A stretch of DNA of 64,000 nucleotides from an uncultured virus (IMG/VR IMGVR_UViG_2061766007_000501) (Duplodnaviria > Heunggongvirae > Uroviricota > Caudoviricetes). A model generated the notes under the pieces. It was not told the DNA's origin and searched no databases. It saw nothing but the letters and a program-made list of their open reading frames with translations. Shown piece after piece: positions 1-63,904 of this stretch (its first letter is position 1; each line of letters begins with the position of its first letter). The stretch lies in the IMG/VR virus record IMGVR_UViG_2061766007_000501. One strand, 5' to 3'. Both the position numbers and the translations under genes were made by a program.

Positions 1-2
1 GC

Positions 3-247
3 GGCAGGCGTGATGCACGCACTGGTGCCATCCTCAAGGCTGAGGGGGTGCATGCAGGTGTCAGCGATATGATCCTGTTCGTCCCATCAGGCGGCTATCA
101 TGCGCTTTGCATCGAGATGAAGACAGCTACTGGTTCGCAGAGCAAGCTGCAGAAAGAGTGGCAGGCAGCCGNNNNNNNNNNNNNNNNNNNNNNGATTTCA
201 TTAGTGAGGTCACGGACTACCTGAATATGGGCAATGTAAATTCTTAG
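3..247 (+). CDS. VRR-NUC nuclease, C-terminal part (spans gap)
   Basis: Manual translation GRRDARTGAILKAEGVHAGVSDMILFVPSGGYHALCIEMKTATGSQSKLQKEWQ, a PD-(D/E)xK VRR-NUC pattern; stop TAG at 245-247. Confidence 0.85.
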
Positions 248-251
248 CATC

Positions 252-705
252 ATGGCAGGCAAGAAAAAGATAGGACTGGATTTTTGGTATCATGACACGA
301 ATGCGTTCCAGGATCTGAAGGTGCGTAAGCTCATCAAGCGCAAGGGTGGTGCAGCCTACACGGTATATGTATGCCTGCTATGTGAGATATACCGACATGG
401 CTATTACATCCAATACGATGACGAGCTGCCGTTTTTTATTTGCGAGCAGACTGGTGTTGATGAAGAATACATCAAGGAAGTCGTTAAGACGTGCCTGAAT
501 ATCGGGCTGTTCGACAAGAAGTTGTTCAAGAAGAAGGTACTGTCAAGCCAGCGCATTCAAGAGCACTTTGCAACAGTGAACCGTCAGGCAAAGCGTACTG
601 CTACCATCGACAAGTACCGCATAATTCCTTCCGAAGATAAAGCTATTTCTTCGGAAGATATAACCATTTCTTCGGAAGATATAACCATTTCTTCCAAAAA
701 AAGTG
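252..705 (+). CDS. DUF4373/Lin1244-like phage replication initiator, N-terminal part (cut by gap)
   Basis: GLDFWYHDTNAFQDLKVRKLIKRKGGAAYTVYVCLLCEIY...GLFD...LSSQRIQ pattern. Confidence 0.8.
624..695 (+). repeat. 21-bp tandem repeats (about 3.5 copies), candidate iterons
   Basis: ATTTCTTCGGAAGATATAACC units at 624, 645, 666, 687 (partial), with internal dyad TCTTC-G-GAAGA. Confidence 0.7.
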
Positions 706-739
706 NNNNNNNNNNNNNNNNNNNNNNNNNNNNNNNNNN

Positions 740-863
740 GGTATGCGAACCACTTGACGCAACGCATCTGGATATCGCTCTCCTCGTGCGATGGTCTCTT
801 TCGCTGGCTTATGGCCTTGTCCTTGGCCAACAGCCTCTCATATTTGCTCAATTCTTCTGACAT
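740..863 (-). CDS. VRR-NUC nuclease, N-terminal part (inverted contig)
   Basis: MSEELSKYE...RPSHEESDIQMRCVKWF is a typical VRR-NUC N-terminus and complements 3..247. Confidence 0.65.
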
Positions 864-1300
864 AACTCTATATTTTAGTGAGACATAAATTTCTTTTATA
901 AAGCTGTGCTATTCTCACGAACCGCACAGCAGAGGATTCTTCTTTGTATCAAACATTCGTCTGAAGTAATCAGGTTCGGCTGTTCACGACCTTCACAGGC
1001 CTCACGCCACTAACTAAAAAAATGGTCAAAAATAAGTTAAGTAAATCGTTGGAAGCAGGGGAGTCGAACCCCTTCCGGCTGAGGCTGGAGGTACCTGTCA
1101 TACACGGGCTGTCAACTCCATGCTACCACCATCCTGAGCCATCCTGCCCCAAACCGCAAAACCTTTTAAATTCCTACATCCTACATTACAAAGAAACAAT
1201 ACACGGTTTTCGCAGGCTTCCCTTATTGGCGGGNNNNNNNNNNNNNNNNNNNNNNNNNNNNNNNNNNNNNNCTGGGCTGCTATCGTTATGTTGTTTGAGC

Positions 1301-1477
1301 CTAGGTTATTCGGTGCCTTTCGACAAATCGGTCTATCTCCGATTTCTTGAAGAGATACTTGCGGCCTACCTTGCGGATGTGTACGTGCATATCCCTAACC
1401 ACATGAGCCTTTATCCACTCGTCACTGACACCACCCAGGTATCTGGCAAGCCCTTCATGGTCGAGCCAAGGGCTTTC
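1301..1477 (-). CDS. Excisionase-like HTH_17 protein (5' end in gap; not in ORF track)
   Basis: ESPWLDHEGLARYLGGVSDEWIKAHVVRDMHVHIRKVGRKYLFKKSEIDRFVERHRIT*. Confidence 0.7.
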   Translation of the reverse strand, partial: ESPWLDHEGLARYLGGVSDEWIKAHVVRDMHVHIRKVGRKYLFKKSEIDRFVERHRIT

Positions 1478-1488
1478 CNNNNNNNNNN

Positions 1489-2041
1489 TGAGGAAGGAGG
1501 ATTGTCTTTATCTGGCAATATACAGGATACAAGCCACCCGTCGTACACAATTGCCCCAGGTCAGCCTCAGCAGGGTCAAGGCAGTCCACACACCTACTTT
1601 GCGCTGATAAACGCACTGAAGGGAAATATAGGCATTACAGACGCACAATATGAGGATGACATCATCTGGGAATGTATGCGGCTCACCAACGATGGCAGGA
1701 CTGACAGTGTCGGGATGCCTCTTATCAGGGAATGGCTGGCGCAGCCTGATGATGCCAAGAGGGTGAACAAATTCTCATATCTTGTACAACGGCTGCAAAG
1801 GGCAGAGCAGGACGGATATATCAAGTGCAGGATGTCGCACAACGAATACTTCATGTTCCGATGGCTTCGCCTCAACTTGAAAATGGGCGAATACCGTGAG
1901 GTGGAATCCCTCTGCAAGGATTGTCCGAATAACCAGCTGCTCTGCCAGGACTGCATCAGGGAAATCAAGGCAAGCGGAGGCAAGATAAAGCTGCCGGGCA
2001 AGTTCATCTTGTCACGATTAAAGGAACAATTAACGCAATAA
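1489..2041 (+). CDS. Partial ORF, probably the C-terminal half of the DUF4373 initiator
   Basis: Open frame from the gap to stop 2041; starts EEGGLSLS, linker-like; same strand as 252..705. Confidence 0.5.
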
Positions 2042-2045
2042 GGAT

Positions 2046-2363
2046 ATGGGACGAAAGAAAGCAATATGCAGTATGAACGCCATCCTGCAGGACGATGGAA
2101 AGACGTGCTTTACATTTCGCTGCAATGGCGATGTGGTAGGTATCAACCAGCTCGATGCAGGGCATGCGTCCAAGATGTACCGTGCATTGGGCGAATTGAG
2201 GAGATTGATCTCCAGCTGCTACAATGTCGGATATATTGACAGGCAGGTCAGCGGCAGTGATAATCGCAACATCATTGGCAAGGTGCATAGAATCCTTAAC
2301 CGCTACCCGAATACCCCTACCCTCAACCGCATCAGGATTGAAATTGAAAATGAGGTGAAATGA
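2046..2363 (+). CDS. Hypothetical phage protein
   Basis: 105 aa ORF in a tightly packed operon. Confidence 0.65.
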   Translation: MGRKKAICSMNAILQDDGKTCFTFRCNGDVVGINQLDAGHASKMYRALGELRRLISSCYNVGYIDRQVSGSDNRNIIGKVHRILNRYPNTPTLNRIRIEIENEVK

Positions 2364-2626
2364 GCAGTGGTAAAGACAATCAGGTGTATGTAGTGTATGA
2401 CCAATTCCACTGGCATACTCCAGATCATGTTGAGTATGTCTTTAAAGGATGGGATGTAGCACTTGCTAATTACGCCTTTTTAAAGGAGGCACACCCAGAC
2501 AAGACACTGGGAATGTGCACCAAAGAGGAATTTATTAAAAAACTGAAAATAATAACTAACAGCGAAGCCAAGTGGAGCGAAGCTCAGGACAGCCAAGAAA
2601 GGCAAAGCGTAGCAAAGCACAGCTGA
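2360..2626 (+). CDS. Hypothetical phage protein (3' end runs through the pentamer array)
   Basis: ATGA overlap with upstream gene; 88 aa. Confidence 0.6.
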   Translation: MSSGKDNQVYVVYDQFHWHTPDHVEYVFKGWDVALANYAFLKEAHPDKTLGMCTKEEFIKKLKIITNSEAKWSEAQDSQERQSVAKHS

Positions 2627-2645
2627 GCCAAACAAAGCATAGCAA
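2561..2645 (+). repeat. Phased AGC-NN pentamer array 1 (17 units), candidate guide RNA
   Basis: agcga agcca agtgg agcga agctc aggac agcca agaaa ggcaa agcgt agcaa agcac agctg agcca aacaa agcat agcaa, then T-run. Confidence 0.9.
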
Positions 2646-2669
2646 ACTTTTTAAAAAACAAATGAGATT

Positions 2670-3172
2670 ATGAAGAACATTAAGTTGAAACTGACAAGCA
2701 CATGTCCTTTGATGCTGAACAATGCAAGGACAGTGAACCCATTCGATGAGTACAGTAAGATGTTAAAGCCCTTAACCAGTAAAAGGGTCAAGACAGAGGA
2801 TGATCTTGAGGAGATATCACGTATCAAGTTTATTGCATCCTTCTACTATGAGGACGGTACCTATATCCTGCCTGCCAACAACATCGAGCAGTCTTTCATT
2901 GAGGCTGCACGTGAGCGCAAGCTTGGTAAGAAGTTTGAGAAGAGCTTCCGCATATTCGATGATGCAAAGCTTGATTTCAGGGATAAGCTGATACCACCAG
3001 ATAAACTGTACAACCTTGGTATCTATGTGGACGTTCGTGCCGTTGGCATCAAGAATGTAAAGATTACCACTACCCGTGCCATCATACCTGAATGGAGTGC
3101 CGAATGCACCTGTTGGTTTGACGAAAGCCAGCTTAATGAATCGGAGGTGATGGAGATAGCCGATATAGCAGG
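2670..3172 (+). CDS. RAMP/Cas7-like (Vipr-like) protein, N-terminal part
   Basis: IKLKLTSTCPLMLN first strand, YILPANNIEQSF (cf. RAMP IPGSSLKG), RAIIPEWS; ends GATATAGCAGG at gap, continues at 63894 on -. Confidence 0.7.
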
Positions 3173-3466
3173 NNNNNNNNNNTCCATAGCCTGCCTGTAT
3201 AGCAGGTGATCAATGCCGTAACGAAGCTGCCTACCCAGAGCAGAATGATTACCACCTGCAAGGCTTCTAACATATCACTTTTCAGTTGTGCTTTCATAAT
3301 ACCATTTCGTTTTTAAGTTGTTCTACATTTTTGCTATCCCTGCCACATCGTGGCTCCTTATGATGCTCGACATACAAGCCCAGCTCAAAGCAGTACCTGC
3401 CGTTGATGCCGTTATGCGCCCTTGCACAGCTGGCGCATATTGGATTACACTTGCTCTTTGCCATAG

Positions 3467-3889
3467 TCAACAACCATTAGCACGTTTGACTTCTTCTGCC
3501 AACTCTTCAAGATTGACATCATCACTTTCATCATAGCCGAATGCGTCTGTCAGGGTGTTACACATATCATTGTCGGATATGCAGCCCAGCAATGTATCAG
3601 CCAGCATGACATCCCTCCTGTAGAGTTTGATTATGTGGTTGTTGATGTCAGAGCAATCCTTATCCAGCTCCTTGGTATATTCAAACAATTCCTTGTACCA
3701 GTCCTTTGCCATCCTGCAATCGCCCTGAACTGCCTCCAGCTGCTTCATGAGTTCATCGGCAAGTTCACGGTACTTCTTCATGACCTCCAGCAGGCGTTTG
3801 TCCCTGGCAATGCTTTGCTTCTTGTTGATGACCTGCATTACGCCCAATGCAATCACCGCTACCATCAAGATAATGTCTATCGTTGTCAT
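3467..3889 (-). CDS. Hypothetical protein, N-terminal TM plus coiled coil
   Basis: 140 aa ORF in early operon. Confidence 0.65.
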   Translation of the reverse strand: MTTIDIILMVAVIALGVMQVINKKQSIARDKRLLEVMKKYRELADELMKQLEAVQGDCRMAKDWYKELFEYTKELDKDCSDINNHIIKLYRRDVMLADTLLGCISDNDMCNTLTDAFGYDESDDVNLEELAEEVKRANGC

Positions 3890-4068
3890 ACAAGTGCCTC
3901 ATTATCGGTTAGAAAACTCTCGCAGGCATCATGCATACCCTGCAACTCCATATCCTCTTTGTAATTGTCCTGAGCAATCGCCCAGTTCTTGTAGCTGTTG
4001 GCATGGGCAATGGCAGCCTGATCACCTTTCTCCGTCTGCATGGTATGCAGCAGACGAATCTTTCTCAT
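3886..4068 (-). CDS. Hypothetical protein
   Basis: 60 aa, overlaps next start. Confidence 0.55.
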   Translation of the reverse strand: MRKIRLLHTMQTEKGDQAAIAHANSYKNWAIAQDNYKEDMELQGMHDACESFLTDNEALV

Positions 4069-4209
4069 GTACGCCTCCTCGTACTTNNNNNNNNNNNNNN
4101 NNNNNNNNNNNNNNNNNNNNNNNNNNNNNNNNNNNNNNNNNNNNNNNNNNNNNNNNNNNNNNNNNNNNNNNNNNNNNNNNNNNNNNNNNNNNNNNNNNNN
4201 NNNNNNNNN

Positions 4210-4333
4210 GGCATTTCCTTAGAGATTCCAGCTGCCTCCTAAGTATGCATATCCTCTGGTGCGTCCTGACTGTTGCAATGAGCAGGTATGCACAGCAGAT
4301 CGTCAGCAATATGATGGCAGCCGTTGTCATCAC
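4210..4333 (-). CDS. Hypothetical membrane-anchored protein (partial)
   Basis: Hydrophobic N-terminus; runs into gap. Confidence 0.5.
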
Positions 4334-4530
4334 GCCTTTACCTTCACGATGGCTTCTGCGCCACCGTAGTTCTTCATCGCCTCAGTGCGTATTCTTCCAG
4401 CGAGTTGGCTCTCCGTGTCATATCGCAGGGCACGTCTTACGGTGTACGTGCTAACGCCGAAATGTTTCGCCAGTGAGGTAATCTTACCCAGTGGCACAAT
4501 AATTCTTGGAATTTCCTTTGTTCTTACCAT
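4330..4530 (-). CDS. Cro-like HTH protein
   Basis: LAKHFGVSTYTVRRAL HTH; first gene of the leftward early operon, behind a TATCTTTG promoter. Confidence 0.75.
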   Translation of the reverse strand: MVRTKEIPRIIVPLGKITSLAKHFGVSTYTVRRALRYDTESQLAGRIRTEAMKNYGGAEAIVKVKA

Positions 4531-4604
4531 ATTTATTATTAGTTTTGCAATTCACTCCCTTTGTTGCATACCGCAACATAGGTGAGTAATTAGGTTTACT
4601 GGTG

Positions 4605-4625
4605 CAAAGATAGAACAATTATTCT
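4605..4625 (-). promoter_or_regulatory. Early promoter -7 box with adjacent palindromic operator
   Basis: CAAAGATA (TATCTTTG on -) abutting AGAACAATTATTCT; same layout at 5412-5432. Confidence 0.55.
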
Positions 4626-4831
4626 AACATTACAAGTAAAGTTAAGAATAAANNNNNNNNNNATGCAAAGATATAACAATTATTCTAACATTACAAGTAA
4701 AGTTAAGAATAAATGTTATATTTAGAATGATTATAAATAAAGAAAGGAGGTAAGTTGTTGTAATATATNNNNNNNNNNTGTTCTATTTAGAATGATTATA
4801 AATAAAGAAAGGAGGTAAGTTGTTGTAATAT

Positions 4832-5436: not shown

Positions 5437-5853
5437 ATGGAAATAATAGATAGAATAAAAATGCTTATTGACGAGGTAATGCCAGAAGGTAGTAAAAATG
5501 ACAATTCTTTTGCGAAATCTATTAATATGGAGCAAAAAACTGTCAATAATTATATGAATGGGACAAATAAACCCTCTTTAAAATTCGTTGAGGCTATTTT
5601 AAAGTCATTTCCTAATGTTTCTGCTGAATGGCTAATGCGAGAAGAAGGGGGAATGTTTAAATCGATAAATCAGTCTGTAAATGGTGTTGGCAATAACATT
5701 CAGGCAGGTGGTAACGTGTCTCATGTGTCGGCAATTGGTAGGGGTGATAAAAGCACGGCTGCCCTGATTGCACAATTAAAGGGTGAGGTTGAATATCTTC
5801 GTAGCAAGAACGATCAGCTTCTTGCCATGCTTAGTAATATTCATTTGAACTAA
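5437..5853 (+). CDS. CI-like XRE HTH repressor
   Basis: FAKSINMEQKTVNNYMNGTNKPS...FPNVSAEWLMREEGGM; divergent from cro-like gene. Confidence 0.85.
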   Translation: MEIIDRIKMLIDEVMPEGSKNDNSFAKSINMEQKTVNNYMNGTNKPSLKFVEAILKSFPNVSAEWLMREEGGMFKSINQSVNGVGNNIQAGGNVSHVSAIGRGDKSTAALIAQLKGEVEYLRSKNDQLLAMLSNIHLN

Positions 5854-6223: not shown

Positions 6224-6516
6224 GTGCGCAATGAATGCGCAAGCGATATAAGAATTAAATAAAATGTTGGTAACTAGGACTATGCGGCAAGCAAAAGACT
6301 GCTTCCCAAGCCGAAGGTCACGGGTTCGAACCCCGCTTGCCGCTCTAACTGATAATCAGGTGTTTAAGTAATTTTAAGTGGTTTATAATAAGGATATAGA
6401 TGAGGTTTGGATGGGTAGAAATGTCCGTTTTTAGCCGTTTTTAGCCGTTTTTGACAGGCATTTGAGTGCGCAATGAGTGCGCAACCTGGAGTTAGTTGGA
6501 TTTTTTGAGTGCGCAA
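6221..6516 (+). other. attP: tRNA core flanked by integrase arm-type repeats
   Basis: TGAGTGCGCAA at 6221, 6232 (1 mismatch), 6463, 6474, 6506; CCGTTTTTAG x3 at 6425-6454; next to integrase. Confidence 0.8.
6301..6345 (+). tRNA. 3' half of tRNA-Gly(CCC), att core (not a full tRNA)
   Basis: GC-TTCCCAA-GCCGA anticodon loop, GGTTCGAACCC T-arm, TTGCCGC-T acceptor; no D-arm. Confidence 0.8.
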
Positions 6517-6591
6517 GCACAGTCTGGATTAGTCTTTTGTATCGGCATTTTGTTTTTAAAAAGAATTATTAAAGAACAAATGTTAGATATT

Positions 6592-7821
6592 ATGAAAAAG
6601 CTAAGTGTTTATGTGGACGGCAGACGCAAGAATGCCAATGGCGAATACACAGTCTATGTTAGGGTGTTCGATGATCGGTTTAAGAAGACGGTGAAGTTCA
6701 GTGCTGGACTCACATCGCCAGTCGTGTTTATGGGGCGTGCGTTTCCTGCAGATGTGCCATCAGCAGACATCCTGACAACGCATCTCAACAGGGTGTACGG
6801 CATCATCCAGCAGCTGGCTCTGCTCAACGATGAGCAGCAGATGGACGAGTTCAAGTCGCAGGTAGACGAGGCTCTTGGGCGAAATCCGAAGAAATCAAAG
6901 CCAAAGTATTTCATCGACTACATCAGGATGTTTGCCTCAGAGAAGACGAACAGGAAGACAAAGTCAATCTATGACCAGACATTCAAGAAGGTAAGGGACT
7001 ATGATGCAAGTGCCACCTTTGACTCAATTGACTACAGATGGCTGCAGGGTTACGAAAAGCGTTACAGCAGGATGACGACCAACGGTAGGGGCATATCGCT
7101 GCGCAGCATCAGGGCTGTGTTCAACTGGGCGATCGTCAACGGATACACCGACAGGTACCCGTTCCGCCAGTTCAAGATTAAAGAGGAACGCACGCGCAAG
7201 CGAAGCCTGACAATCGACCAACTGAGGCTGCTTCGTGACTATCCCGTCCAGGCATGGCAGGAGGAGTACCGCGACATATTCATGCTGCAGTTCTATTTGA
7301 TTGGTATCAACATTTCAGACCTGCTTGAACTGCGTAAGCTGACGGACGGCAGATGTGTCTACCGACGCAAGAAGACTGGCAGGCTGTACGACATTGCAGT
7401 GCCTCCAGAGGCGATGGAGATAATAAACAAGTACAAGGGTGAGAACTACCTGATCAACCCGCTTGACCGATACAAGAACGTGGACAATTACGTTGCTCAT
7501 CTGAACATCGGGTTGAAAAAAATAGGAGCGTGCAGGTGCATAAGGGATACGCATGGGAACACCAGGTATGAGTATGATTCCCTGTTTCCAGAACTGTCAA
7601 CCTATTGGAGCCGTCACACATGGGCAACGATAGCGGCATCGCTTGACATACCGAAGGAGACGATTGGCAAGTCGCTTGGGCATTATGAATGGGACAGCAC
7701 CACCACCGACATCTACATAGCCTTTGACAACCGCAAGATCGATGAGGCGAACAGGCGGGTGATAGACTACCTGAATGAGGACAAGGGATTCGGGTGTAAG
7801 ATAATATCAATGGTACCATAA
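6592..7821 (+). CDS. int: Tyrosine integrase (Bacteroidetes SAM-5 type)
   Basis: Arm-binding N-terminus; YWSRHTWATIA, LGH and TTDIY catalytic motifs; start placed at MKKLSV. Confidence 0.93.
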   Translation: MKKLSVYVDGRRKNANGEYTVYVRVFDDRFKKTVKFSAGLTSPVVFMGRAFPADVPSADILTTHLNRVYGIIQQLALLNDEQQMDEFKSQVDEALGRNPKKSKPKYFIDYIRMFASEKTNRKTKSIYDQTFKKVRDYDASATFDSIDYRWLQGYEKRYSRMTTNGRGISLRSIRAVFNWAIVNGYTDRYPFRQFKIKEERTRKRSLTIDQLRLLRDYPVQAWQEEYRDIFMLQFYLIGINISDLLELRKLTDGRCVYRRKKTGRLYDIAVPPEAMEIINKYKGENYLINPLDRYKNVDNYVAHLNIGLKKIGACRCIRDTHGNTRYEYDSLFPELSTYWSRHTWATIAASLDIPKETIGKSLGHYEWDSTTTDIYIAFDNRKIDEANRRVIDYLNEDKGFGCKIISMVP

Positions 7822-10271: not shown

Positions 10272-12416
10272 CTAGCCGATTGTTGCCTCGCTCACAGCCC
10301 TGCGGTTGCGTGCAGTGGTTCGCCTGATGCGAGGCACGATGCGTGGCAGCTCCATTTCCCTGAGTGCTATATGCAGACCGATGGCACGTGTCATCAACAA
10401 ATCATCATGCTCGTCCGTAATGGCACCGAATGCACCGTTCTGCTTGCGCTCATAGCACAGATACTCATGCAGGCACCGCTCGTCACGCTCCACATACAGG
10501 CGTTCACGTATTGCCTCTACAAGGGTAGATATAATCATCGGCTTGGTCAGGACATTCGTATGGAAGCCATACTTGACTGGTGCCTTCTCACGAATCTCCT
10601 CCTCGCTCTGCCTGCGAGCATAGAGGTTGTCGTACACGTCCTTTATCTGGTTGAGTATGAAGCTGGATTGGTCACCGTCCACGTTTCGCTCCCTGTCATG
10701 CGTCTCCAGGGTGTTGCTCTCGATCACCAGCAGGGCATCGTCATAGTACTTGGCAACCTGCGCTGCCTTCCAAGCCAGCAAGTCCATGTCGATATGTCCG
10801 TACCACTGAGCCACCACTGATGGTGCGCCACCATCCATCTGCATCAGGCGGTCAAATACCGTGATGACAGACCAGTCTGCCTTATGGCTGCGTCCACCGA
10901 TATCCACCACGACAAGATAGCGGTTAAGCACCTTCTCGTTTGTGTCGATCTCCGGCTGCTGCCATATCCACAGCAAGCCCTGGTGGTCTTCATTAAAGCG
11001 TATATTGACAAGTGCATCCTTGCCTTTGATGCTGTTGCCGTAGATATCCCCAATATACTTGGGCACCTTGCATGTCGTTCGGAACTTTTCAACCTGGTAT
11101 CGGTCAAATACCATCGTGCCTGAGTGCACGAATGCCTCGATATCGTCCGATGGGTACTCCGATGCCATGTCACCGTGGTTGTGGTACTTGGCACGCTCCA
11201 GTATGTACCACTGTATGGCCTCCAGCGTGGCACCTTTCTGCCACAGCCACCAATAATACTGTCCGGGCTCCTCACGGTCAGACAAGGCATTGCGGTTGTT
11301 GCGGTTGACCCACAACCAGGTGGCAAGTGCATTGTAGTCCTGCACACGGCTGCGGTACTGGTCAATGTCATACCAGGCAATGAACAATGGGTGCATCTGG
11401 CTCTTTCCTTCAATAGATGCCAACCATTCCTTATGGAAGAAGTTGCCAGTGCCGTTGGCTGTGCTTTCATAGACTATCATCGTAAGCGGTTCTAGTAGGA
11501 TACCTGCACATGCTGAGCGCACCATTTGCTCAGGCGTTTTCTTTTCTGTTTTTTTCCACAAGCCCACCTCGCTACAATGTACCAGCGAGTAAGCACCACC
11601 ACGAATACTGTCAGGCCGTTCTGCAGAGCCTATCTTTATCTTGCACCCACGTTGTGGGACACGATGTATATTGCCCGACTTACCAACACCTTCCCATTTC
11701 TTCTCGTTCTCATTGTACGCTTCGCCGATTTCATGTAGATAGGTTACAGGATACTGTGTAATCATCCTGACAAACATATCCTGAATTTCATCTGCTACGG
11801 TGTTTTGTAGTGCTGCAATCAGGCTGTTAAGACCTGGCTTGATTACCAATTGTAGCCATGCCATATAGAGCTGGATGCAGGTGGAGCCACCCCACTGACG
11901 TGCCTTGAGCAGTATCAGACGGATGGGCTTGCCTGCCAGACGCATATCCTCCAGTACTGCAACCAGCCTGCGCTGAGGCCTGTTGAGACGGAACAGTATG
12001 TCCTCGCCACCTTCCTTTGGTGCGATGTAAACGAGCAGCGCAGCCCAGAATGCAAAGTCATGCTCAATCCTGATGCGTACTATCTGCTCGATGACCTTAT
12101 GTGTCTCCTCTTCGGTAGCTTCCACCTGCATCTCACCCTCCAGCCACATGGCGATGGAGCCGCACCTTACAATCTGCCTGATGAGAGGTATCTTGCACAT
12201 GGCAATAGGCAGCCACATTTCCTTCAGGGGGAAGTCCTTGATGCGTACCTTCTTGCGCTTGCCGACCGACCCCTCTCCTGTGATTGGGTTGAATACGGCA
12301 TTGATGGCCTTGTTGCGCCTGTCGTTCTCTGCGAGGATTTTCTGCACCGCTACTGCCTGCTCATGGCTCGTGCGTGGTGTCAGGCTCATGGTCATATTGT
12401 TTGTGCCTGCCATCAT
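10272..12416 (-). CDS. terL: Terminase large subunit
   Basis: LKARQWGGST Walker A, VHCSEVG Walker B, ESTANG, VVVDIGG and HDDLLM nuclease motifs. Confidence 0.93.
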   Translation of the reverse strand: MMAGTNNMTMSLTPRTSHEQAVAVQKILAENDRRNKAINAVFNPITGEGSVGKRKKVRIKDFPLKEMWLPIAMCKIPLIRQIVRCGSIAMWLEGEMQVEATEEETHKVIEQIVRIRIEHDFAFWAALLVYIAPKEGGEDILFRLNRPQRRLVAVLEDMRLAGKPIRLILLKARQWGGSTCIQLYMAWLQLVIKPGLNSLIAALQNTVADEIQDMFVRMITQYPVTYLHEIGEAYNENEKKWEGVGKSGNIHRVPQRGCKIKIGSAERPDSIRGGAYSLVHCSEVGLWKKTEKKTPEQMVRSACAGILLEPLTMIVYESTANGTGNFFHKEWLASIEGKSQMHPLFIAWYDIDQYRSRVQDYNALATWLWVNRNNRNALSDREEPGQYYWWLWQKGATLEAIQWYILERAKYHNHGDMASEYPSDDIEAFVHSGTMVFDRYQVEKFRTTCKVPKYIGDIYGNSIKGKDALVNIRFNEDHQGLLWIWQQPEIDTNEKVLNRYLVVVDIGGRSHKADWSVITVFDRLMQMDGGAPSVVAQWYGHIDMDLLAWKAAQVAKYYDDALLVIESNTLETHDRERNVDGDQSSFILNQIKDVYDNLYARRQSEEEIREKAPVKYGFHTNVLTKPMIISTLVEAIRERLYVERDERCLHEYLCYERKQNGAFGAITDEHDDLLMTRAIGLHIALREMELPRIVPRIRRTTARNRRAVSEATIG

Positions 12417-18460: not shown

Positions 18461-20425
18461 ATGAAGAAGGACAGAATAAGACCGATGAGCCGGGTTAAGC
18501 CCGATACGATGGAGATGGATTCCTTGAAGGAGTCCAAGAAGCTGGGTGACCGCAGGGCGTTCGAGGTTCTGCTTGCAGCGCAGCTATGCTGGAGCAACAT
18601 GGACAGGTTCCGCAAGGAGCGTGAGCGCAACAAGCGATACGCATACGGTGAGCAATGGAAGGACATTGTGTGTGTGGATGGCGAGAGCATGACCGAGGAG
18701 GAGTACATCATGAAGCAGGGCAGCGTGCCATTGAAGCAGAACCTTATTCGCAGATTGGTGCGTGCAGTCCTGGGTGTCTATCGTGGTCAGGACACCGAGC
18801 CCATCTGCAGGGCACGTGACCGCAACGAGCAGAAGATGGGTGAGACACTCACGACACTGTTGCAGTACAATAACCAGACCAACCGCATGAAGGAGGTCAA
18901 TGCACGCTCGATGGAGGAATACCTCATTTCTGGCTTTATTATGCAGCGCAAGTGGTACGGATGGCGCAATGACCGGCTGGACTGCTGGACGGACTATGTG
19001 CAGCCTAATAATGCCTTTGTGGACAGCAACATGCGTGACTTCCGTGGCTGGGACTGCTCACTCATCGGTGAAGTGCATGACGTATCGTTCAATACAGTAG
19101 TGGGTAAATGGGCGCACAGTGCTGCTGACTACAACAAGCTGGCTCAGATATATGCACCCCAGCGCAGGACGAAGGCCTACATGATGGATCATGCAGAAGA
19201 GTTTGGTTTCTCACGTCTGGAGAACTATGATTTCCTGCTTACGTCCGACCCGACAAGGTGCCGTGTGATTGAGGTGTGGCGGCAGGAGAGTAAGCCACGC
19301 TATCGTTGTCACGACTACAACACAGGCGAGGTGTTCAAGTGCGAGATTCAGGATAAGCCCGTCATGGTGGATGCCGTGAACGCAGACCGTCTGCAGCGAG
19401 GGCTGGAGGCAGGCATGAACCCCGATGACATCCCGATGATAACATCCGAATGGTTTGAGGATAATTATTGGTATTACTATTTCCTTACTCCGTTTGGAGA
19501 TATCCTTGACGAAGGTGAAAGCCCATACGCACACAAGAGCCACCCTTATGTATTCAAGTGCTATCCTTATATTGACGGGGAGATACACAGCTTCGTCAGC
19601 GATGTGATAGACCAGCAGCGATACACCAACCGACTCATCACGATGTACGACTGGATTATGAGGGCATCTGCCAAGGGTGTGCTTCTGGTACCCGAAGACA
19701 GTATTCCTGACGGTATGAGCATTGAGGACTTTGCCGAGGAGTGGCACAGGTTCAACGGTGTGATTGCGTATAAGGCCAAGGCAGGTGTGGCAGCACCACA
19801 GCAGATTGCCAACAATGCCACAAACATTGGTATTGCAGAGCTGCTTAACTTGCAGCTTCAGTTCTTCCAAGACATTTCAGGTGTAAATGGCCCCCTGCAG
19901 GGACAGGCAGACTATTCAGGTCAGAGTAATGCCATGTACCAGCAACAGACAAGCAATGCCATGACCACATTGCTGGATATCACTGAAAGCTTTGAGGGAT
20001 TCTTGACCGATGCTGCGTACAAGGATGCAAAGAACATCCAGCAGTTCTACGATGATCGTATGATTATGAACATTGCTGGTGATACGGCAGGCGATATACA
20101 GGACGTGCACGACAAGCTGCACGACATCGAGTTCGACATGTCAATCATCCAGTCAACCACATCGCCTGTTTACCGTGCTATGGGCAACCAGTTCCTGATG
20201 CAGGTATGGCAGGCAGGACAGATAACGCTGGAGCAGATGTTAGAGAATGGTGACTTCCCGTTTGCCGACAGCCTGCTGCAGAGCATCCGAACGCAGAACG
20301 AGCAGATGGCACAGGGGCAGATGCCGCAGGGCATCGACCCGCAGCTGATGGCTCAGGCGCAGCAGGGTGCCGACATGAATGCAGTCAACAGGGCATATAA
20401 CATGATTAAGGGGACAGTAGCATGA
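18461..20425 (+). CDS. Portal protein (P22-like)
   Basis: 654 aa; YAYGEQW, NLIRRLV, SFVSDVIDQQRYTN, ISGVN; Gln-rich tail. Confidence 0.85.
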   Translation: MKKDRIRPMSRVKPDTMEMDSLKESKKLGDRRAFEVLLAAQLCWSNMDRFRKERERNKRYAYGEQWKDIVCVDGESMTEEEYIMKQGSVPLKQNLIRRLVRAVLGVYRGQDTEPICRARDRNEQKMGETLTTLLQYNNQTNRMKEVNARSMEEYLISGFIMQRKWYGWRNDRLDCWTDYVQPNNAFVDSNMRDFRGWDCSLIGEVHDVSFNTVVGKWAHSAADYNKLAQIYAPQRRTKAYMMDHAEEFGFSRLENYDFLLTSDPTRCRVIEVWRQESKPRYRCHDYNTGEVFKCEIQDKPVMVDAVNADRLQRGLEAGMNPDDIPMITSEWFEDNYWYYYFLTPFGDILDEGESPYAHKSHPYVFKCYPYIDGEIHSFVSDVIDQQRYTNRLITMYDWIMRASAKGVLLVPEDSIPDGMSIEDFAEEWHRFNGVIAYKAKAGVAAPQQIANNATNIGIAELLNLQLQFFQDISGVNGPLQGQADYSGQSNAMYQQQTSNAMTTLLDITESFEGFLTDAAYKDAKNIQQFYDDRMIMNIAGDTAGDIQDVHDKLHDIEFDMSIIQSTTSPVYRAMGNQFLMQVWQAGQITLEQMLENGDFPFADSLLQSIRTQNEQMAQGQMPQGIDPQLMAQAQQGADMNAVNRAYNMIKGTVA

Positions 20426-35425: not shown

Positions 35426-38400
35426 ATGCCAGTAAACGATAACTTAAAATGGGTCTATAACCAACTGACCCAAAAGGGTGCCAATATGGGTACCATTGAA
35501 GATTTCGAGAAAGCGATGGGTGATGAGGCTAATCGCAAGTGGGCTTATGACTATGCAGGGAAACAAGGCATTAACCTTGGGTCAATGGATGATTTTACAA
35601 AAGCGATTGTCTCTGCTCCTGTGCAACAACAATATCCGCAAGAGGTCATCGATGCATATAACGATCCAAATGATGCTGCACCTAACTTTAAGGACATTGC
35701 GCAAATAAATAAAGAATACCAGCAGAGAAATGCGGCAAAAGCAAATAATGACACTTTGCCTCCGATGGCACCATCTGTAGAGCAAGACACACTTATGACT
35801 GGCAGCATCTGGGGGCAGCCTACGCAGCAGCAGGCACAGAAAGCTGACTCTGATAACACTCAGGTGCCGATGAGGCCTGCCAATGAATTGCCATTCAATG
35901 GTGTTTCCATAGAAGAAATGCGCAGGGCTCAGCAACAGCCCGAAGGGTATGAGCTAGAGCAAGGTGTTGGTGGCAGACCTTGGACTATGCAGCAAGAAGC
36001 AGCATGGTCATCACTCACACCATCTGCACGTAGGGCAGCCATTGGTGATGAAAAGCTAGCTAACCAGTTTGAGGAATACCTGAAAAACCAGCAGCGTGAC
36101 GAATTGCGTTCCAAGAATAGATATCAAGTAGAGTCACTTTCACAGGAGCTTGATAGCTTAATGAATGAACGTGCTAAAGCTTTCGACAAAGAGCATACTC
36201 CTATGGAGCAAGCCATGTATGCTTCAATGACCGAAGGTAGGTCGTTGCTTGACACTGACAAAGAGTATCAGACACTCTCTGCTGCAAAGAGGTCGCTTAA
36301 TGATGCGCAGAAAATCATTGATGAGGCTGACATTGCCATGAAAGAAGGACGGTACGATGAATGGTACAAACAGCTTGGCCAGTTCTTCCAGGGGGCAGTC
36401 AGAGGTTTTAAGAACGGAGCATTTGATATCCGTACATGGGATTTCGGTGGCACTGACATTTCCGATGGCAGTGCGTTACTGACAGCCTTGAACAAGGCAG
36501 ACAAGGGTGAAAAGCTTACCCGTAGCCAGCAGGCTTTGTTGGATGCCAAAGCCATTGAAATGGCTACTCAGGCATACTTTGGCTCTGAGCTTGGACGAGG
36601 GTATAAAGCAGGATTGGTGACAGCAGAAAGTTTGCCGTTCATGGTCGAGATGATGATTAACCCTGCATCCACTACTGGTAGTGCTGCCGCAAACAAGATG
36701 GCAAGATATGTCGTTAAGAGATTTGGGCAAGAAGCCATGAAGAAAGCGGGCGGAAAAGCTGCTAAAATAGGAGCAAGAGTGCTGGGTGATGTTGTTGGTG
36801 CAGCTACCATGTCAGCAACTACGGGTGCAGGTGGTGTAGCTGCAGATGCGCTCAAAAGACAAGCTGGAGATATACAATTTGATACTGACGAAGAGGGTAG
36901 AAGTGTATTTGCAGGACATGAGAACGCTGATGATTTTGCAACAGCATTAAGAAAATCATTCCTCGCAAGAACAATTGAGAACTATTCCGAAATGGTGGGT
37001 GAATACTTCTCGCCTCTATTTGGCGCAGCTGGCAAGGGTTTGAGAACTGGTCTTAACAAAGTAGGACTTGGCAAAGTCAACGACTTTATCGACAACGTTA
37101 GCATGAGTGATATTGGTCAGCTTGTGGCCGACTTTGAAAAGAATGCCAAGTGGAATGGTACATTTGGTGAATTTGCAGAAGAAATGGTCGGTGGTGCAAT
37201 GAACGCTTTGCTGGTTGGTGACCAATCCTTCAATCCAAAAGATGAGAATTATGTGTTCGATAAAGACCAAATGATTGACACATTCCTGGGTGTAGGTCTG
37301 ATGAGTGGCTTCTTCTCGGCAGTACAGACAACAGGCTACAGGACACCTAAGTATCGTGCAAGACAAAACATGAACCGTAGCGAAAAAGAGGCTGATGCGC
37401 AATTCTCAAACATTAACAAATATCAGTGGGACGTCATAAAGGCTGGCATTAGGTCTGATGATGAGGATGCGCAGAAGCAAGCCATGCAAGCTATTATGAC
37501 TGACACCTCTTTGTCTGACCAGCAAAAGGCTTCGTTCATGGAGTATGTCAAGAATGTGCAGATGTATAAAGGTGCCATGATGGGTGATAATAAGCGTAAG
37601 GAAGAAGGCGCAGATACACCAGAGCAACTTGATGCTGAAAGTAATTACGATGCGGGCTATGAAGCCAGCGATGAGCAGAAGAATGAGCTGAAGAACCAGT
37701 ATGAGGCATTGCGTGCAGAGGTGCTTGAACGCTTTACATTTGATAAGGACTATGAACCAGAAGTAGTGTTGGATTCGTGGACTGATAATCCAGTAGGTAT
37801 GCTCATGGCGGTCAAGAACGCTGGATCATCTGAAGAGTCTATTCAACTTCTGACTGACTACATTAACGCCAAAGCTGCATACGATGGAATGATTAACCGT
37901 GTGCAGGATGATATAGACAGCGAGATTGCCGCTTCTGACGCACAGGTAGATTCGCAAGTCAACGTTAAATCCGGCATGGTGCAGCCTGCAGTTACAAAAC
38001 AAGGTAGCGAGGTGTATGTGATGGATGGCAATGTAGTGATGCGTGAAGATGGCAGTGGCATTGACTTGGATAATTCTTCACGTGACGTTATCATCAAAGA
38101 CAAGCAGACTGGCAAATTGGCCTTTGTTCCAGTGGAAGATCTTGATTCGATTGACTATCCCATCAATCCAGAACAGCTGAAAGCCTTCAATGCTAAGGCT
38201 ATCCGACAGGCAAAAGCTCAGGAGCAGGCCGACCTGATTGATGGAAAGCTGGCATTTGCCGAAGGCGATACATACCAGGCAATGGGCGAGGATGGCACTC
38301 CAGTGGAAGTGACTGTTATCAGTGACAATGGCGATGGTACTGTGAATGTGGGCATCAATGGCGAAGCATCTGCCGACCCAATGGGTAAGGACGCACTGCA

Positions 38401-41400
38401 ACAGATGGTTGATAGATACAAGCTGCAGCAGGCACAGGCAGCCAATGCAGAGCGCAGGGCTGACCAGGCTGCAAGTCAACAAGAGGCAGCTCCAGCTCAA
38501 CCTGCCAACAATGGACGTACCTACCAATTGAATGAGCAGGTGCCAGTAACCCTACCTAACGGCACTTCTGGAATTGCGTTTGTGCAGGGCGAACCTGATG
38601 CAGACGGTAATTACGAGGTTGAGCTGACTGATGAGGCTGGCAATTCTTTGGGTGTTCGCTTGATGAGCCAACAAGAGCTGAATGCAATGGAGGTTGTGCC
38701 ACAAAGTGAAACAACACAAGCAACGGTTAATGCACCTGCAACGGCATCGAGCCAGGTAGTAGATAACCAAGAGCCAGGTAGTAGCCAACCTGCAGTCAGC
38801 AACAACCAAGCTAACATTGAGACGGAAGCCATGCCGATGATAGGCGAGGGCGATGAGGCTGTGCCCGATTATGGAAAGGTGAGTCCTGAGCGTACCCATA
38901 AGTATATCTATACCGAGACAGGCCTTAATGAGAAGCAGGCTGACCAGCTTGTGGGTGTGATGAAGAAGGAAGCCGAGAAAGCCTTGAAGCAAGCGCAGAA
39001 GAATGAGCCTCAGTTTGGTGACAAGGGTATTGGCACCAATATCAACAAGTTCAACAAAGCGCATGAAGAGTGGGGCAAGAAGGTGGCAGACGCACAACGG
39101 CAGGTGGAGTACTGGAATGCTGTTGAGCAGGAGCAGGCATCGGTGGTCAGCCAGCGTGAGCAGGCTGCCAAGGAAGCTGCCGAGCTTGAAAAACTAATGA
39201 ATATGACCGAGGCAGAGCGTATAATGCAGAACAATCTTGCACGGATGGAGCCCAGAAACCTGAACGAATTGGCGGCACAAATGATTGGTACAGGTTCCAT
39301 CAAGCTTATTCGTGGTTCATTTAAAGAAGAAACTGGCTACAAGACTGGTGAAGCAAGAAAACTTTTGCGTATCTTTGCAGCAAAGGAGGATGGTGGTGTA
39401 AGTGTGGATAAGGCTGGCGAGCTGGTAGAAGATATGGCAAGAGCCCTGCATATCCCATTTGACGAAACCGATGCCAACGCAGGGCGTAATGCTGTGATTA
39501 GTGTGCTTGGTGATGTTCGTACATGGGGTGATTTGTTCCACTATATTGCCAAGGCACGCCAAGCTGAAATGGATAAGGCGAATGCCGATCAGGAGCGATA
39601 TGAGGCACAGCAGCGTGATGATTGGGCGCAGGAACACTTCAATATGAGCTATGATGACTACATGGCGTGGGAGAATGACTACCTGCCAACAATAGCCGAA
39701 GAATATGCTCTTACACCTGACGAAGTTTACGAAGATATTAGTAATGACATAAATAAAGAAAACAATGAACGAGTTACAACAGAAACGAGCTCTGGAGTTG
39801 AAGCAGGCAGTGCAGTTCTGCAAGGATCACAACCTGCTGATGAAGGGCGAACTGGAGAAGCTGGCCAACAAGGAAACAGTGAAGGAAATGACATTGCGCT
39901 GCGTGGCGAGAATGAGAATGTACCTGAAGACGCATCCGGAAGCGAAGTAGGCGGTCTGACGGATAACCAAGGGAACTTAATAGATGAGAACGGTAATCTG
40001 ATACTTGACGAGGTAGCAAGTGTTGATGATTTAACAGATGAAGATTTTATATCTCCATCCCGTAGTGTCATGCTCCCTGTTATCCCTGAGCGAGTTGACA
40101 ATGCTATCGGTGGTGGTGGCAAGCGTGTCATCATCAAGAAAAACATTTTTATCAAAAACAGAAACACACACAAAGACCTTACGCCAAAAGATAGTAGGAG
40201 AATACTTATAGAAGCGATTTATAAAAACAACGGGCATGGGCAGACTCAGCCAGTTACAAAGCCCAACTATTGGGTAGTTCTTAGGACATCCGATCCAAAT
40301 AGAATTGTAGTTCTTGAAGTATCAAATAAAAAAGAAAATATTGAGGTAATAGGGTGGCATTACACGGATGCAAAAGGGTTGGAGAAGCTGAAGAAACAAG
40401 CCGAACGTGAGGACGGGCAGCTCCTCATACAGACTTCAGATGAAGCGGCGGCAGCCCTTTCCACTCTTCCGTCCGATGTTTCTGCAAGCAAAGATACAAC
40501 ATCTACTGCAAATAACCAAGAAAAAGAGCAAGAAAATTTGCAGCAGCAGATAGAAAATGCCCGTCAGGAGGTTGATGCAAACCCGACTGATGCACAAAAG
40601 GAGGCTGGTAACTACAAAAAAGGTCACATCAAGCTGGATGGCTATGACATCAGCATCGAAAATCCGAAGGGCAGCACCCGTAGTGGTACAGACGCAAGCG
40701 GTAAGCCGTGGTCTGTTACCATGAACAACGACTATGGCTACATCCGCATGACAGAGGGCGTAGATGGTGACCATATTGACGTATTCCTTTCCGACAATCC
40801 AAGTGAAGGCAATGTATATGTGATTGACCAGGTGAAGCCTGATGGCACATTCGATGAACACAAGGTGATGTATGGCTTCAACAGTGAAGAAGAGGCAAAG
40901 CAGGATTACTTTGCCAACTATTCCCCTGGGTGGAAAGGCTTAGGCACCATCACGGGCGTAAGCAAGGATGAGTTTAAGAAGTGGGTGGAAAGCAGCCATC
41001 GCAAGACCAAGCCGTTTGCAGAATATAAGAGCGTGGAGCCATTGGAGCAGTCAAACCAAAAAGTAAGTGCTGCAGAGTCTAAGCCAGCAAAGAAAGTAAC
41101 AGTAACCAATACAAAAAAGATTGATGACTTTGGTGAGAAGATTGGCGGTGCAAGGAAAGACGTTGCACGTGACCGCATCCGTACCACTCGCAGTATGACA
41201 GGTAAGGACTTGAAGTCGTTGAAAAAAGGCCCCGATGATATCCTTTCGGGAGCTAATATTCTACGTCTCTACAAAGAAGGGCAGATGGATGAGGCTACGG
41301 CAAGAAGCTTCCTGGCATTCAACAATGCCGTAAAATCTGCAAAAGACAGCGTGTTTGCCGGTGTCATAGCCCTAAGAAAGTATCGTGATGCTGCAGTAGC

Positions 41401-44400
41401 ATGGGAAGAAGGTAAGCCTGTTAAGTTTGAGGTAACGGATGCTGACCTGGAAGAGTACAAGGCTGGTTTCTCTATTCCTATATCAGATGAAAAAGCGAAG
41501 GAGGATCTTGATTATAGGATTACAGAGCCGTTCAATGCCTATATGTCAACCTATGAGGCCATCAATTATCCAGCTGTAGAGCGAAGGCTTGCCCAACGTG
41601 TAATTGTAGATCATAGTAAAGGGAAACATGCACATTTGTATGGTAGGCCGTATTGGTACAAGAGTAGTTTCCATGCTAACAGTGGCTGGCCTTTCTCCAC
41701 TATGAGTGATGCCGTGAGAAAGATGGAGAGTGAAAACCCTGTCGTGGAAAAGAAAGACAAGAAGTCTGCTAAGGGTGAAGGAGCAGAACATGGCCTGCGT
41801 GTTGTGGAAGACGGTTATCGTTATTATATCAAGAGCCGTAACATTCCTGGCACAATCTATTTGTCGCAAGGCTTCTTAAGGAAGAAGGATGCAGAAGCAT
41901 ACCTGAATGACAATCTTGAAAAACTGATTGAAAAAGAAACTAACATGGTTGACGCTTTGATGGGCAGCAACATCGGCATGGCTGAGCGTGAGGGCGTGGA
42001 CTACCGTAACGGCAAGGATGTGACACCAGACGATTTCCTCAACGAGTTCGGTTTCCGTGGCGTTGAGTTCGGCAACTGGGTGCCTCAGGCTGAACGCCAG
42101 ATGTATCTGAACAAGACATACGATGCCATCAAGGACTTCTGTGCCATCGTGGGCATCAGCCCTAAAGCTTTCTCTTTGGGTGGACGCTTGGGATTAGCGT
42201 TTGGCGCAAGAGGGCATAGCCGTGCAATGGCTCACTATGAGCCGGCAAAGGAAGTGATTAACCTCACCCGAATGAGTGGTGTAGGCTCACTTGCACACGA
42301 ATGGTTCCATGCGCTTGACAATTACCTGGCTAAGCAGAAGACGGGTAACATCAGCGACATGGCTTCTGTTACAAACGATACAGTACGTGAGGAAGTCGGT
42401 GACGTATGGAAGGAAATGCGTACTGCCATGAAGCAGCTTGATTATCACAGGCGTTCTACCCGTGCAGGCGAATACTGGGGGAGAACGGAGGAAGAATTTG
42501 CACGTCTCTTTGAGAATTACATCTACAACAAGCTGGCAGAGAAGCAGGCAAAATCACCTGTGCTTGTACGTCAGGACATATTGCTTGATTATATCGATGG
42601 CGTTGAACGCAACTCATGGCCTTATCCTTCTGCAGCCGAGAATGAGCAGATGAAACCTCTGTTTGACAAGCTGTTTGACACCATTCAGGAAAAGACAGAC
42701 GGGAACGGCAAGGCTGTGTTGTTCCATAAAATGCCAAACTCTTTCTTGGAGAAGGAGGCTGATGCAAAAGAGACAGGGCTCCGTAATGCCCTGACAGACC
42801 TTATGAAGCAGGCTGGTGTTGAGGTTATCACTGATGTTGAAGAGGGGCAGCGTGTATTGGATGAGGCTGGGGATAAGGCAAAAAAGGTGGCAATTGTGCA
42901 AAACATCGAAAACGGTATAAATGCTCTTCAAAGAATAGCGGCAGGAGAAGAAAGGGTGCCTGCTGCCATGACACGAAATGATTTGTCACAATATGGAGGT
43001 GATAATAATATTACTTTCTATTATGGTAAAACAGGCAATCCTAAAAAAGACTACAAAAAGGGTTATGGAGTATCACATATTGGGGGCAAACACGGTGCAG
43101 AGACGTTATTAAAATTGCTTAATGTGATTGCTACTGGTAAGATAGATCGTTATGTTTCTGGCAACAAGACCATTGTCCTTACTGATGGAGAATATGAGGT
43201 GTTGTTGGCACTCACAAGATTTGGAAATAAAGAAACATGGTTGTTCAACGGATGGAGAAAAGATGAAAAAACTGGTGCTGACGGCGAGGTTAGTACTCAC
43301 TCCGACGCTACGCAAGCCAACCCTACATTTAGTCGTGAAGACTTGGGAGCAGTTCTTTCTGATGCAAATATACAAAGTTTAATCGAATCTGCAAAAGAAA
43401 AAGAAGAAAAAATTAACAAGCAGAAGATAGAAGCTCCTATTTTCTACTTCCGAACCCCTGACGGACAGGCTTACGGCTACACGCTGAACGGCAAGATTTA
43501 CATAGACCCACGCATTGCCACTGCCGAGACACCTATCCATGAATATGCCCATCTGTGGGCAGAGGCTTTGCGTGCTGCCAACCAGAAGGAGTGGGAGAAT
43601 GTGGTAAGCCTTATGAAGGGGACACCAGTATGGGATGAGGTGAAGCAGACCTACCCTGAACTGACTAACGACAATGACATTGCCGAGGAGGTGTTGGCTC
43701 AATACAGCGGACGTAAGGGTGCCGAACGTCTGCGCAAGGCTCAGGATGAGGCTATGAAGAAGGCAGGTACTGACGTTTTTGCCCGGGCTGAGGCTATATC
43801 TGCCTTTGATAGTGTAAGACGTGCCTTGAGCCGCTTCTGGCAAGCCGTTGCAGACTTCCTGCACATCCACTATACCAGTGCAGAGGAAGTGGCAGACCGT
43901 GTGCTGTATGACCTACTGCAGGGTACCAATCCACTGAACACGTCAAAGGTTAATGCGCAAAGTGAGGTGCGTCCACAGAAAGCAGGAGAGCCAGCATTAC
44001 AACTAAGTCTATCTGACATGACAGATGATGAGCTGCTGGAAAATGCGATGAGGAATGGCCTGAACACTCCTGGAGATACATTTGGCAACGAGTATGACAG
44101 AAGGCATGAAGATGAGTATGCCGACTTCTACAACCAGATGGAGCAGGAGTTGAAAGACAATCCAATCAGCAGGGAGGAAGTTGAGGCTAGGATGGCCGAC
44201 CTGATGAAAAGGTGGGAGAGAGGTGCCTATATGACACCTGAAAGAACGGCAATTCAGGCGCAACTGATGGCTCTTGACGATTACCAGGCTGACATGGCTG
44301 ATGCGGAGGTGGATGCCGAAGTGCCAGAAGATTTCACTCCTGGCGTACAACCAAAACAAGAGAATGACAATGCCACTACTTATGTGACCACCAAGGGCAA

Positions 44401-63554: not shown

Positions 63555-63720
63555 TTATTCACTGTTTATGAATTATCCTACTGAGCCCTGGCAAGGACTG
63601 GCAATGTCCATGAAAGCGGTATGGAGGGTGTGCAAGCAATACGCAGATAAGCCTGAGCGAACTTTCTTTGTCACGCTCCCTTACCAAATTATATGACCTC
63701 CTGTAATTATCCATAAAAAA

Positions 63721-63814
63721 ACTACGCTTTGCTTTGCTTCGCTTTGCCCNNNNNNNNNNTACTTAGCTCCGCAAGGCTGGGCTTTGATTAGCTTGGCTGG
63801 GCTATGCTTTCGCT
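63721..63814 (-). repeat. Phased AGC-NN pentamer array 2 (interrupted by gap), candidate guide RNA
   Basis: On -: agcgaa agcat agccc agcca agcta atcaa agccc agcct tgcgg agcta agta [N10] g ggcaa agcga agcaa agcaa agcgt agt, then T-run. Confidence 0.88.
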
Positions 63815-63816
63815 AT

Positions 63817-63894: not shown

Positions 63895-63904
63895 NNNNNN
63901 NNNN

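Follow-up and report, generated by a model that had tools for sequence, protein, structure and literature searches.

The locus lies in an uncultured Caudoviricetes virus (IMG/VR record IMGVR_UViG_2061766007_000501), within a window of 64,000 nucleotides, the whole stretch of DNA analysed, which is a scaffold of 11 pieces with runs of N between them. Its central gene, vipr, is cut by a scaffold gap, and the two parts were found near opposite ends of the window on opposite strands (Table 1). Pieces 1489-3172 (+) and 63760-63894 (−) overlap by 11 nucleotides, the sole end-to-end overlap longer than 7 nucleotides among the N-separated pieces, and both gene parts match the database protein P0001 (189 aa), the N-terminal part at 160 of 167 residues (96%) and the C-terminal part, compared by eye, at 24 of the 25 last residues. 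Because of this overlap and the P0001 match, we joined the two halves, which upholds the claim of a preliminary description of this DNA that rejoining yields a protein of about 189 aa, and which gives the true order as array, vipr, array(s), and then the early phage genes on the large piece. The same array-gene layout is present in contigs from two other studies (X3, 2214-3172, with 37 differences, and X4, 2498-2756, with 5). The short scaffold pieces (window 1-4778 and 63760-64000) are out of order and orientation, and one small nuclease-like ORF appears to run on from 740-860 (−) into 1-171 (+). The window may therefore amount to almost an entire phage genome in which the early region is shuffled.

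Table 1. Features of the vipr locus and landmarks of the surrounding phage genome.
Feature	Position	Strand	Basis or remark
vipr, codons 1-167, cut by scaffold gap	2670-3172	+	phrog_4652 match, E 1.3e-29; profile and model of the family
vipr, C-terminal 25 codons, G-loop and stop	63817-63894	−	11-nt overlap with the end of the first piece
Upstream vrRNA-type array (putative), 17 AGY/NN pentamers, 12 exact AGC	2561-2645	+	Phased-array scan, shuffles
T-run closing the upstream array, putative 3′ end	2648-2652	+	Same ending in L036
88-aa ORF upstream of vipr	2360-2626	+	Last 22 codons (66 nt) inside the array, 13 units overlapped
Downstream array, first part: one unit, 1-nt shift, 9 complete units, then N gap	63760-63814	−	Phased scan
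Downstream array, final 6 units, ended by a run of 7 T	63715-63749	−	Phased scan
Non-vap1-like phage gene (304 aa), downstream of the arrays	62640-63554	−	Homologues in 4 related loci, kilobases from vipr
Repressor	5437-5853	+	Marks temperate phage
Integrase	6496-7821	+	Marks temperate phage
Terminase-like	10272-12416
Portal	18461-20425

A scan of 23 selected ORFs found integrase, repressor, anti-repressor, portal, terminase-like, head, and tail genes, and the integrase, repressor, and virion genes together identify a temperate phage. The vipr gene sits just downstream of the replication initiator gene. The sequencing runs that best cover the window DNA are labeled bovine gut; no RNA run was listed among those containing it, which has no bearing on expression. 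As the closest named genomes with Vipr homologues are those of Bacteroides, Duncaniella, Porphyromonadaceae, Prevotella, and Bacteroidales, a Bacteroidales host is probable. We detected no CRISPR-like repeat (22-mers), no PADLOC match, and no Rfam family in the window, in keeping with the earlier statement that it has neither a CRISPR array nor cas1/cas2. Elsewhere in the window, 35426-50143 encodes a virion-type protein of 4905 aa whose family matches are to DarB-like antirestriction and endolysin-like proteins.

The array upstream of vipr runs in one unbroken 5-nt register. Its scaffold triplet is AGC in 12 of the 17 units and AGT, AGG, AGA, GGC, or AAC in the other five, and the variable dinucleotides (NN) read GA CA GG GA TC AC CA AA AA GT AA AC TG CA AA AT AA. 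When all 64 triplets were scanned in five phases on both strands, this array had the top score in the window, and none of 20,000 base shuffles of its 85 nucleotides reached the 12 in-phase AGC observed, the maximum being 6. The array ends 24 nucleotides before the vipr ATG at 2670. The register, the unit counts, the NN list, the T-run, and the spacing given in the preliminary description were all reproduced. No hairpin terminator or structured tail was found after the upstream array (fold z = 0.44; 0 terminator-like sites), and a scan built without Bacteroidota promoter models returned no sigma-70 promoter or terminator at 2300-2800. Of the 111 loci with enough upstream flank, 3 have an array at the corresponding site before vipr: L036 (81% protein identity), L027, and L033. 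The 88-aa ORF that reads into the window array, which the preliminary description does not mention, had no family match and was not found beside other vipr genes.

The only other region above threshold in the phased scan, 63719-63808 (−), belongs to a second AGC array 3′ of the gene (63719-63814), which the preliminary description does not list. It is interrupted by an N gap (63750-63759), and its last part may belong to the same vrRNA as the first part or to a second one; L036 and L037 have two downstream arrays each, both closed by a T-run. A stretch of about 100 nucleotides immediately following the last array occurs in two copies that differ at several places (63590-63700 and 63905-64000). 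No stable fold was found for it (z 0.54), nor any Rfam family at 63500-64000, and we therefore claim no ribozyme; it is probably an assembly bubble between strains, although it may also be a second repeat unit with more guides.

Downstream of the arrays, related loci differ in gene content. A vap1-like profile, which picks up the Felixounavirus gene that follows vipr (E 3e-20), also found one (phrog_5926) in 37 of the 115 AGY-clade loci described below, and an unrelated ORF of about 62 aa follows in 61 of the 115. The profile found no vap1-like gene in the 64-kb window (N gaps aside), L036, or L037, and none of these three carries the 62-aa ORF after its arrays. The gene had been called solo, a term that fits the subclade of the window and fails for the wider clade. 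The conserved, basic 62-aa ORF, seen in loci among L007-L025 and L061-L115 and never together with a vap1-like gene (0 loci with both), is a candidate new accessory protein on sequence grounds.

We compared the protein with known families by profile and by structure prediction, using P0001 (96% identical) and its alignment in place of the joined window sequence. A profile of 74 homologues matched the Vipr of SUSP1 (PDB 36PP) over residues 1-187 with an E value of 8.7e-37, the next match being at E 0.9. The AlphaFold model of P0001 had a pLDDT of 93, and its best Foldseek matches, in a library older than the Vipr entry, were Csm/Cmr RAMP subunits (E about 2e-5, TM 0.41-0.59). These results support a Csm3/Cas7-like RAMP with a predicted RRM core, thumb, and G-loop, the fold proposed earlier, and one homologous to characterized Viprs; the resemblance to VIPR suggested earlier has the profile match to SUSP1 Vipr and the VIPR papers behind it. 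On this homology and this model we therefore assigned the locus to the VIPR systems. The family match of the window protein is phrog_4652, annotated as of unknown function; Pfam and PADLOC gave no match to it, and a single-protein scan of viral contigs gave no locus.

Three locus scans yielded 115 loci with homologues, a partly redundant set in which some contigs occur in two collections. AGY-NN arrays lie near the gene in 112 of them, which answers the earlier proposal to survey homologous loci for 5-nt periodic flanks. Two of the three array-less loci have less than 30 nt of flank, and the third encodes a distant His/Asp-type protein. Over the arrays, the unit consists of A (0.86), G (0.87), C or T (0.91; C 0.43, T 0.48), and two variable bases. 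AGC as a variant scaffold triplet was thus borne out, with AGY as the consensus. In one rumen group, as many as ten guides follow each other in staggered runs, parted by a constant leader and a 1-nt shift; the human-gut groups have two to four guides each with constant tails, and the group of the window (with L036 and L037; 81% identical) has short arrays ending in T-runs.

For the code test, the concatenated NN of 356 unique guides (292 families) were searched against 1.57 Mb with the arrays masked; this set consists of the 115 loci together with the window, searched on both strands, and is therefore a small database made of vipr flanks. With one base skipped after each dinucleotide (skip-1), 20 of the 356 guides, from 14 families, had a match at E<0.01, and the other 336 had no target in that set. 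The controls at the same threshold gave 1 match for skip-0, none for skip-2 and skip-3, 1, 0, 1, 0, and 1 for five unit shuffles, and none for reversed order. At an identity of at least 90%, skip-1 gave 12 matches versus 0 in every control, and the best skip-1 match was 31/32. The non-contiguous code put forward earlier therefore holds at clade level as a 1-skip rule, while its variants with skips of 0, 2, or 3 do not.

Ten of the 14 guide families match non-vipr sequence and four match vipr. Of the 13 non-vipr targets examined, 3 are without a convincing ORF; the other 10 fall within long ORFs, read on either strand, whose third codon position coincides with the skipped base. In the significant vipr targets, the skipped base is at codon position 3 in 7 of 7. 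The annotated targets include tape-measure and exonuclease genes. Matches to both the sense and the antisense strand of genes point to DNA rather than RNA as the target, which favors one side of the DNA-or-RNA alternative left earlier, and the suggestion that competing phages are targeted agrees with the matches of relatives' guides to genes of rival phages. No further non-vipr target came from a second set, made up of 40 pieces from 16 virus records together with the window: its six matches were all to vipr, and skip-2 gave 2. In the human-gut phages L046-L058, guides match the tape-measure genes of phages closely related to their carriers at up to 31/32, which suggests competition among sibling phages.

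Seven vipr-directed guides match the vipr of other phages at 86-96% and their own vipr at 68-72%, at sites in the 3′ part of the gene and in frame. The commonest anti-vipr family matches 60-61 of the 115 vipr genes at 85% or more and each carrier's own gene at 68-72%, the low match to the own gene being due to amino-acid changes at the target site. The targets of the clade's guides are rival phage genes, including the vipr of other phages and not their own. In L007, L017, L025, L063, L069, L092, and L115, the first guide detected downstream of vipr is the one directed against vipr, and the phage's own Vipr is substituted at the targeted codons. As far as the text of 10.64898/2026.10.15.759431 describes them, the vipr-targeting vrRNAs reported there are alike in being aimed at a rival vipr, in their wobble alignment, in lying near the 3′ end in several cases, and in their lower self-match. 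That text places vipr-targeting guides on VIPR-null Enterobacteriaceae phages and reports self-avoidance for vrRNA-targeting guides, whereas the anti-vipr guides found here are carried by VIPR-positive phages, and at the target site the vipr of the carrier encodes different amino acids.

The AGY scaffold coincides with changes at the residues that read its first base. In SUSP1 Vipr, H17 and D177 read G1, R138 and W178 read G2, and the Y3 pocket includes R179, according to the text of bioRxiv 720927. R138, W178, and R179 align with R136 (74/74), Y/F176 (73/74), and R177 (74/74) of the family, and both G1-reading positions are changed, with Asn17 in 69 of the 74 and Thr175 in all 74. His paired with Asp or Glu is found at seven GGY phage loci, and Asn paired with Thr at 110 AGY loci. 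In a wider test, viral contigs were scanned for Thr-type and Asp-type G-loops; 120 of the 123 loci among the matches listed (80 loci for the Asp-type counts) held a Vipr, and these formed 96 clusters at 80% identity. Among the matches listed, His/Asp goes with GGY in 60 of 60 clusters and Asn/Thr with AGY in 5 of 6, the sixth being without a call; two of these five had already been found in the earlier scans. Proteins with Thr but not Asn keep GGY (Gln/Thr in 6 of 8 clusters, His/Thr in 3 of 3), so Thr175 alone was rejected as a predictor of AGY; Asn17 alone was likewise rejected, since the Asn/Asp clusters gave GGY in three cases, relaxed NGC in two, and no call in one. AGY without the Asn17 and Thr175 pair occurred in none of these 96 clusters among the matches listed, AGY itself making up 5 of the 96. 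In a tree of 59 rows, a single branch (SH-aLRT 96) contains all 13 AGY proteins; it takes in a Bacteroidota group as well as one that includes an alphaproteobacterial locus. The link between residues and scaffold is therefore one evolutionary event, a hypothesis for mutagenesis and no proof.

Asparagine commonly reads adenine. From the alignment, we infer that a G-to-A change at scaffold position 1 may have been accommodated by His-to-Asn and Asp-to-Thr changes at the G1-reading residues. It is conceivable, at somewhat less than an even chance, that the AGY clade is an orthogonal VIPR channel, in which His17Asn and Asp177Thr re-specify the first base and AGY guides are loaded that GGY-type Viprs cannot load. 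If so, these phages would be insulated from GGY decoy guides, two repressors would be independently programmable in one cell, the window copy would represent the most minimal version (one 189-aa protein and a predicted unstructured RNA of about 90 nt), and the arms race of guide versus vipr would be recorded as amino-acid changes in the effector. SUSP1 guide mutants described in the text of bioRxiv 720920 include a GGY-to-AGY change (Fig. S12B), and perturbation of GGY in general abolished silencing there.

We consider it unlikely that these VIPRs have no more than a loosened position-1 pocket (NGY, as in the published YNNNG class), with A predominating through mutational AT bias and no specificity for AGY. 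Position 1 is G in 7% and T in 6% of the units (A 51, T 19, G 10 in L026), the Asn/Asp proteins of phiHSIC and Vibrio phage 1.266.O go with relaxed NGC units, and the methods text of the discovery paper lists the non-GGY motifs YNNNG, NNNGG, and NNNNG (720920). Against this, A accounts for 86% over all arrays and still for 29 of 35 units in L033 (Reyranellaceae) and 32 of 36 in L027, where the flanks are G+C-rich by eye, and position 3 is often C, contrary to an AT bias. The two phages with an Asn17/Asp Vipr and a relaxed NGC scaffold, Listonella phiHSIC (L122) and Vibrio phage 1.266.O (L183), are cultured, and their Viprs are a possible intermediate state that is experimentally accessible.

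The window locus itself is very probably a phage VIPR of the AGY-scaffold, Asn/Thr-pocket clade in a minimal form without vap. VIPR was described in 2026 (bioRxiv 10.64898/2026.04.26.720920 and.720927), and the text of these papers reports for SUSP1 a filament with one protomer per unit (cryo-EM), an R-loop triplex, and transcriptional repression. By homology, the arrays on either side of vipr would give rise to short guide RNAs ending at the T-runs, and the 189-aa Vipr RAMP would polymerize on the RNA with one subunit per pentamer, burying AGY and presenting NN. The NN pairs would read double-stranded DNA two bases on, one skipped, the skipped base usually being the codon wobble base, as computed for the guides of relatives. 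The target gene would be repressed on binding and left uncut, as expected of a locus without a nuclease neighbor. Targets would lie in phages or prophages that compete for the same host, their vipr genes among them, and the window locus would silence competing phages without a Vap; SUSP1, according to the text of 759431, required vap1 against its satellite.

The window's two guides had no natural target in any search, including the 1.57-Mb and second target sets. Exact 1-skip patterns (three patterns of 18-20 specified bases) gave 0 matches in IMG/VR, and searches allowing up to 3 mismatches gave 0 in 5 genomes, 0 in 401 genomes, and 0 in 27 virus records. One further search at up to 3 mismatches returned 1 in 401, a 21/24 match in AT-rich sequence, which we rejected because the flanking units do not extend it and about 2 such matches were estimated by chance. 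Units 10-16 of the upstream guide match the phage's own replication initiator (456-503, near 483) at 13/14 in codon frame; self-targeting was rejected (E about 0.8, whole guide 22/32), and 30 initiator loci of relatives gave nothing better than 13/14.

These searches bear on the possibility that the clade is active and the window copy is a decayed or incomplete VIPR, which has lost its accessory gene and whose guides are now without targets. We regard this as improbable. Alongside the negative target searches, the lack of a vap1-like gene in the 64 kb, the 5 degenerate units among the 17 upstream, and the upstream ORF that reads into the array would fit decay. The 189-aa frame, however, is open and keeps the invariant residues of the family; the same layout without vap recurs in L036 and L037, whose NN strings are different, and the contigs from the two other studies cover the same layout. 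Moreover, some VIPR types have a single vrRNA, and the text of bioRxiv 720920 names six vap genes for seven types. It is hardly credible that the array has nothing to do with RNA guiding and is instead a microsatellite, a DNA iteron bound by protein, or a coding repeat within the 88-aa ORF: that ORF does overlap 13 units, but a 5-nt period is incompatible with a codon repeat, the upstream ORF of L036, unlike that of the window, terminates at the first array unit, arrays accompany vipr in 112 of 115 loci, and targets were found by the 1-skip reading only, so that the code test largely refutes it.

We compared this very probable VIPR with the type II systems of SUSP1 and P. fulva as described in the text of 720920 and 720927 (PDB 36PP). 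Like them, it is phage-encoded and centers on a RAMP of about 190 aa that is homologous over its full length. Further likenesses to SUSP1 are the pentamer arrays flanking vipr, with one upstream and more downstream, a DNA code with a 1-nt, wobble-aligned skip and competing-phage targets (here for the guides of relatives), and the absence of cas1/cas2 or a CRISPR array from what was seen. It differs from SUSP1 in its scaffold (AGY, not GGY), in Asn17/Thr175 in place of His17/Asp177, in lacking vap1 in the window copy, and in its probable Bacteroidales host. Whereas SUSP1 guides carry a structured invariant 3′ tail, the window arrays are closed immediately by a T-run and show neither a structured or pseudoknot tail nor excess folding. 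The RRM fold, thumb, and G-loop predicted for the protein recall the Csm3/Cmr4/Cas7 RAMPs of Class 1 CRISPR; unlike those systems, the window has no cas operon, CRISPR-like repeat, or PADLOC match, and the guide code is non-contiguous.

VIPR itself, the skip rule, wobble alignment, the structure, anti-vipr guides, and non-GGY motifs are already in print in the text of these papers. COMPASS (10.64898/2026.10.21.760802) gives the cores GAC, CAC, WGT, and TGH in its text; WGT overlaps AGT-rich members of our clade, and AGY-NN fits inside the published YNNNG. The text of the four VIPR papers does not name AGY as a natural motif, the logo figures S17 (720920) and S10 (COMPASS) lying outside the text search: AGY occurs once in the text of 720920, as the engineered SUSP1 mutant, is absent from the COMPASS main text, and has 0 occurrences in the text of 720927 and 759431. 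The passages of 720920 and COMPASS on non-GGY motifs contain neither a target test nor a residue link. The AGY clade may already be inside the data sets of these two papers. NR contains the clade member P0055, and the clade is therefore probably inside the published 2,664-protein set, with a logo that may be in Fig. S17 of 720920.

The present analysis extends the skip code, so far tested on GGY guides, to another scaffold triplet by independent target analysis, and points to two residues whose exchange could test how the scaffold is recognized by Vipr. The AGY clade also offers a candidate orthogonal, accessory-free programmable repressor whose probable Bacteroidales hosts are a gut lineage of interest for genetic tools, and its anti-vipr guides, together with self-avoidance, make coevolution of phage versus phage directly readable. 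One surveyed locus, L029, is labeled Candidatus Bathyarchaeota and has the same protein end and arrays as the Bacteroidales locus L035; it is probably a binning error rather than an archaeal VIPR.
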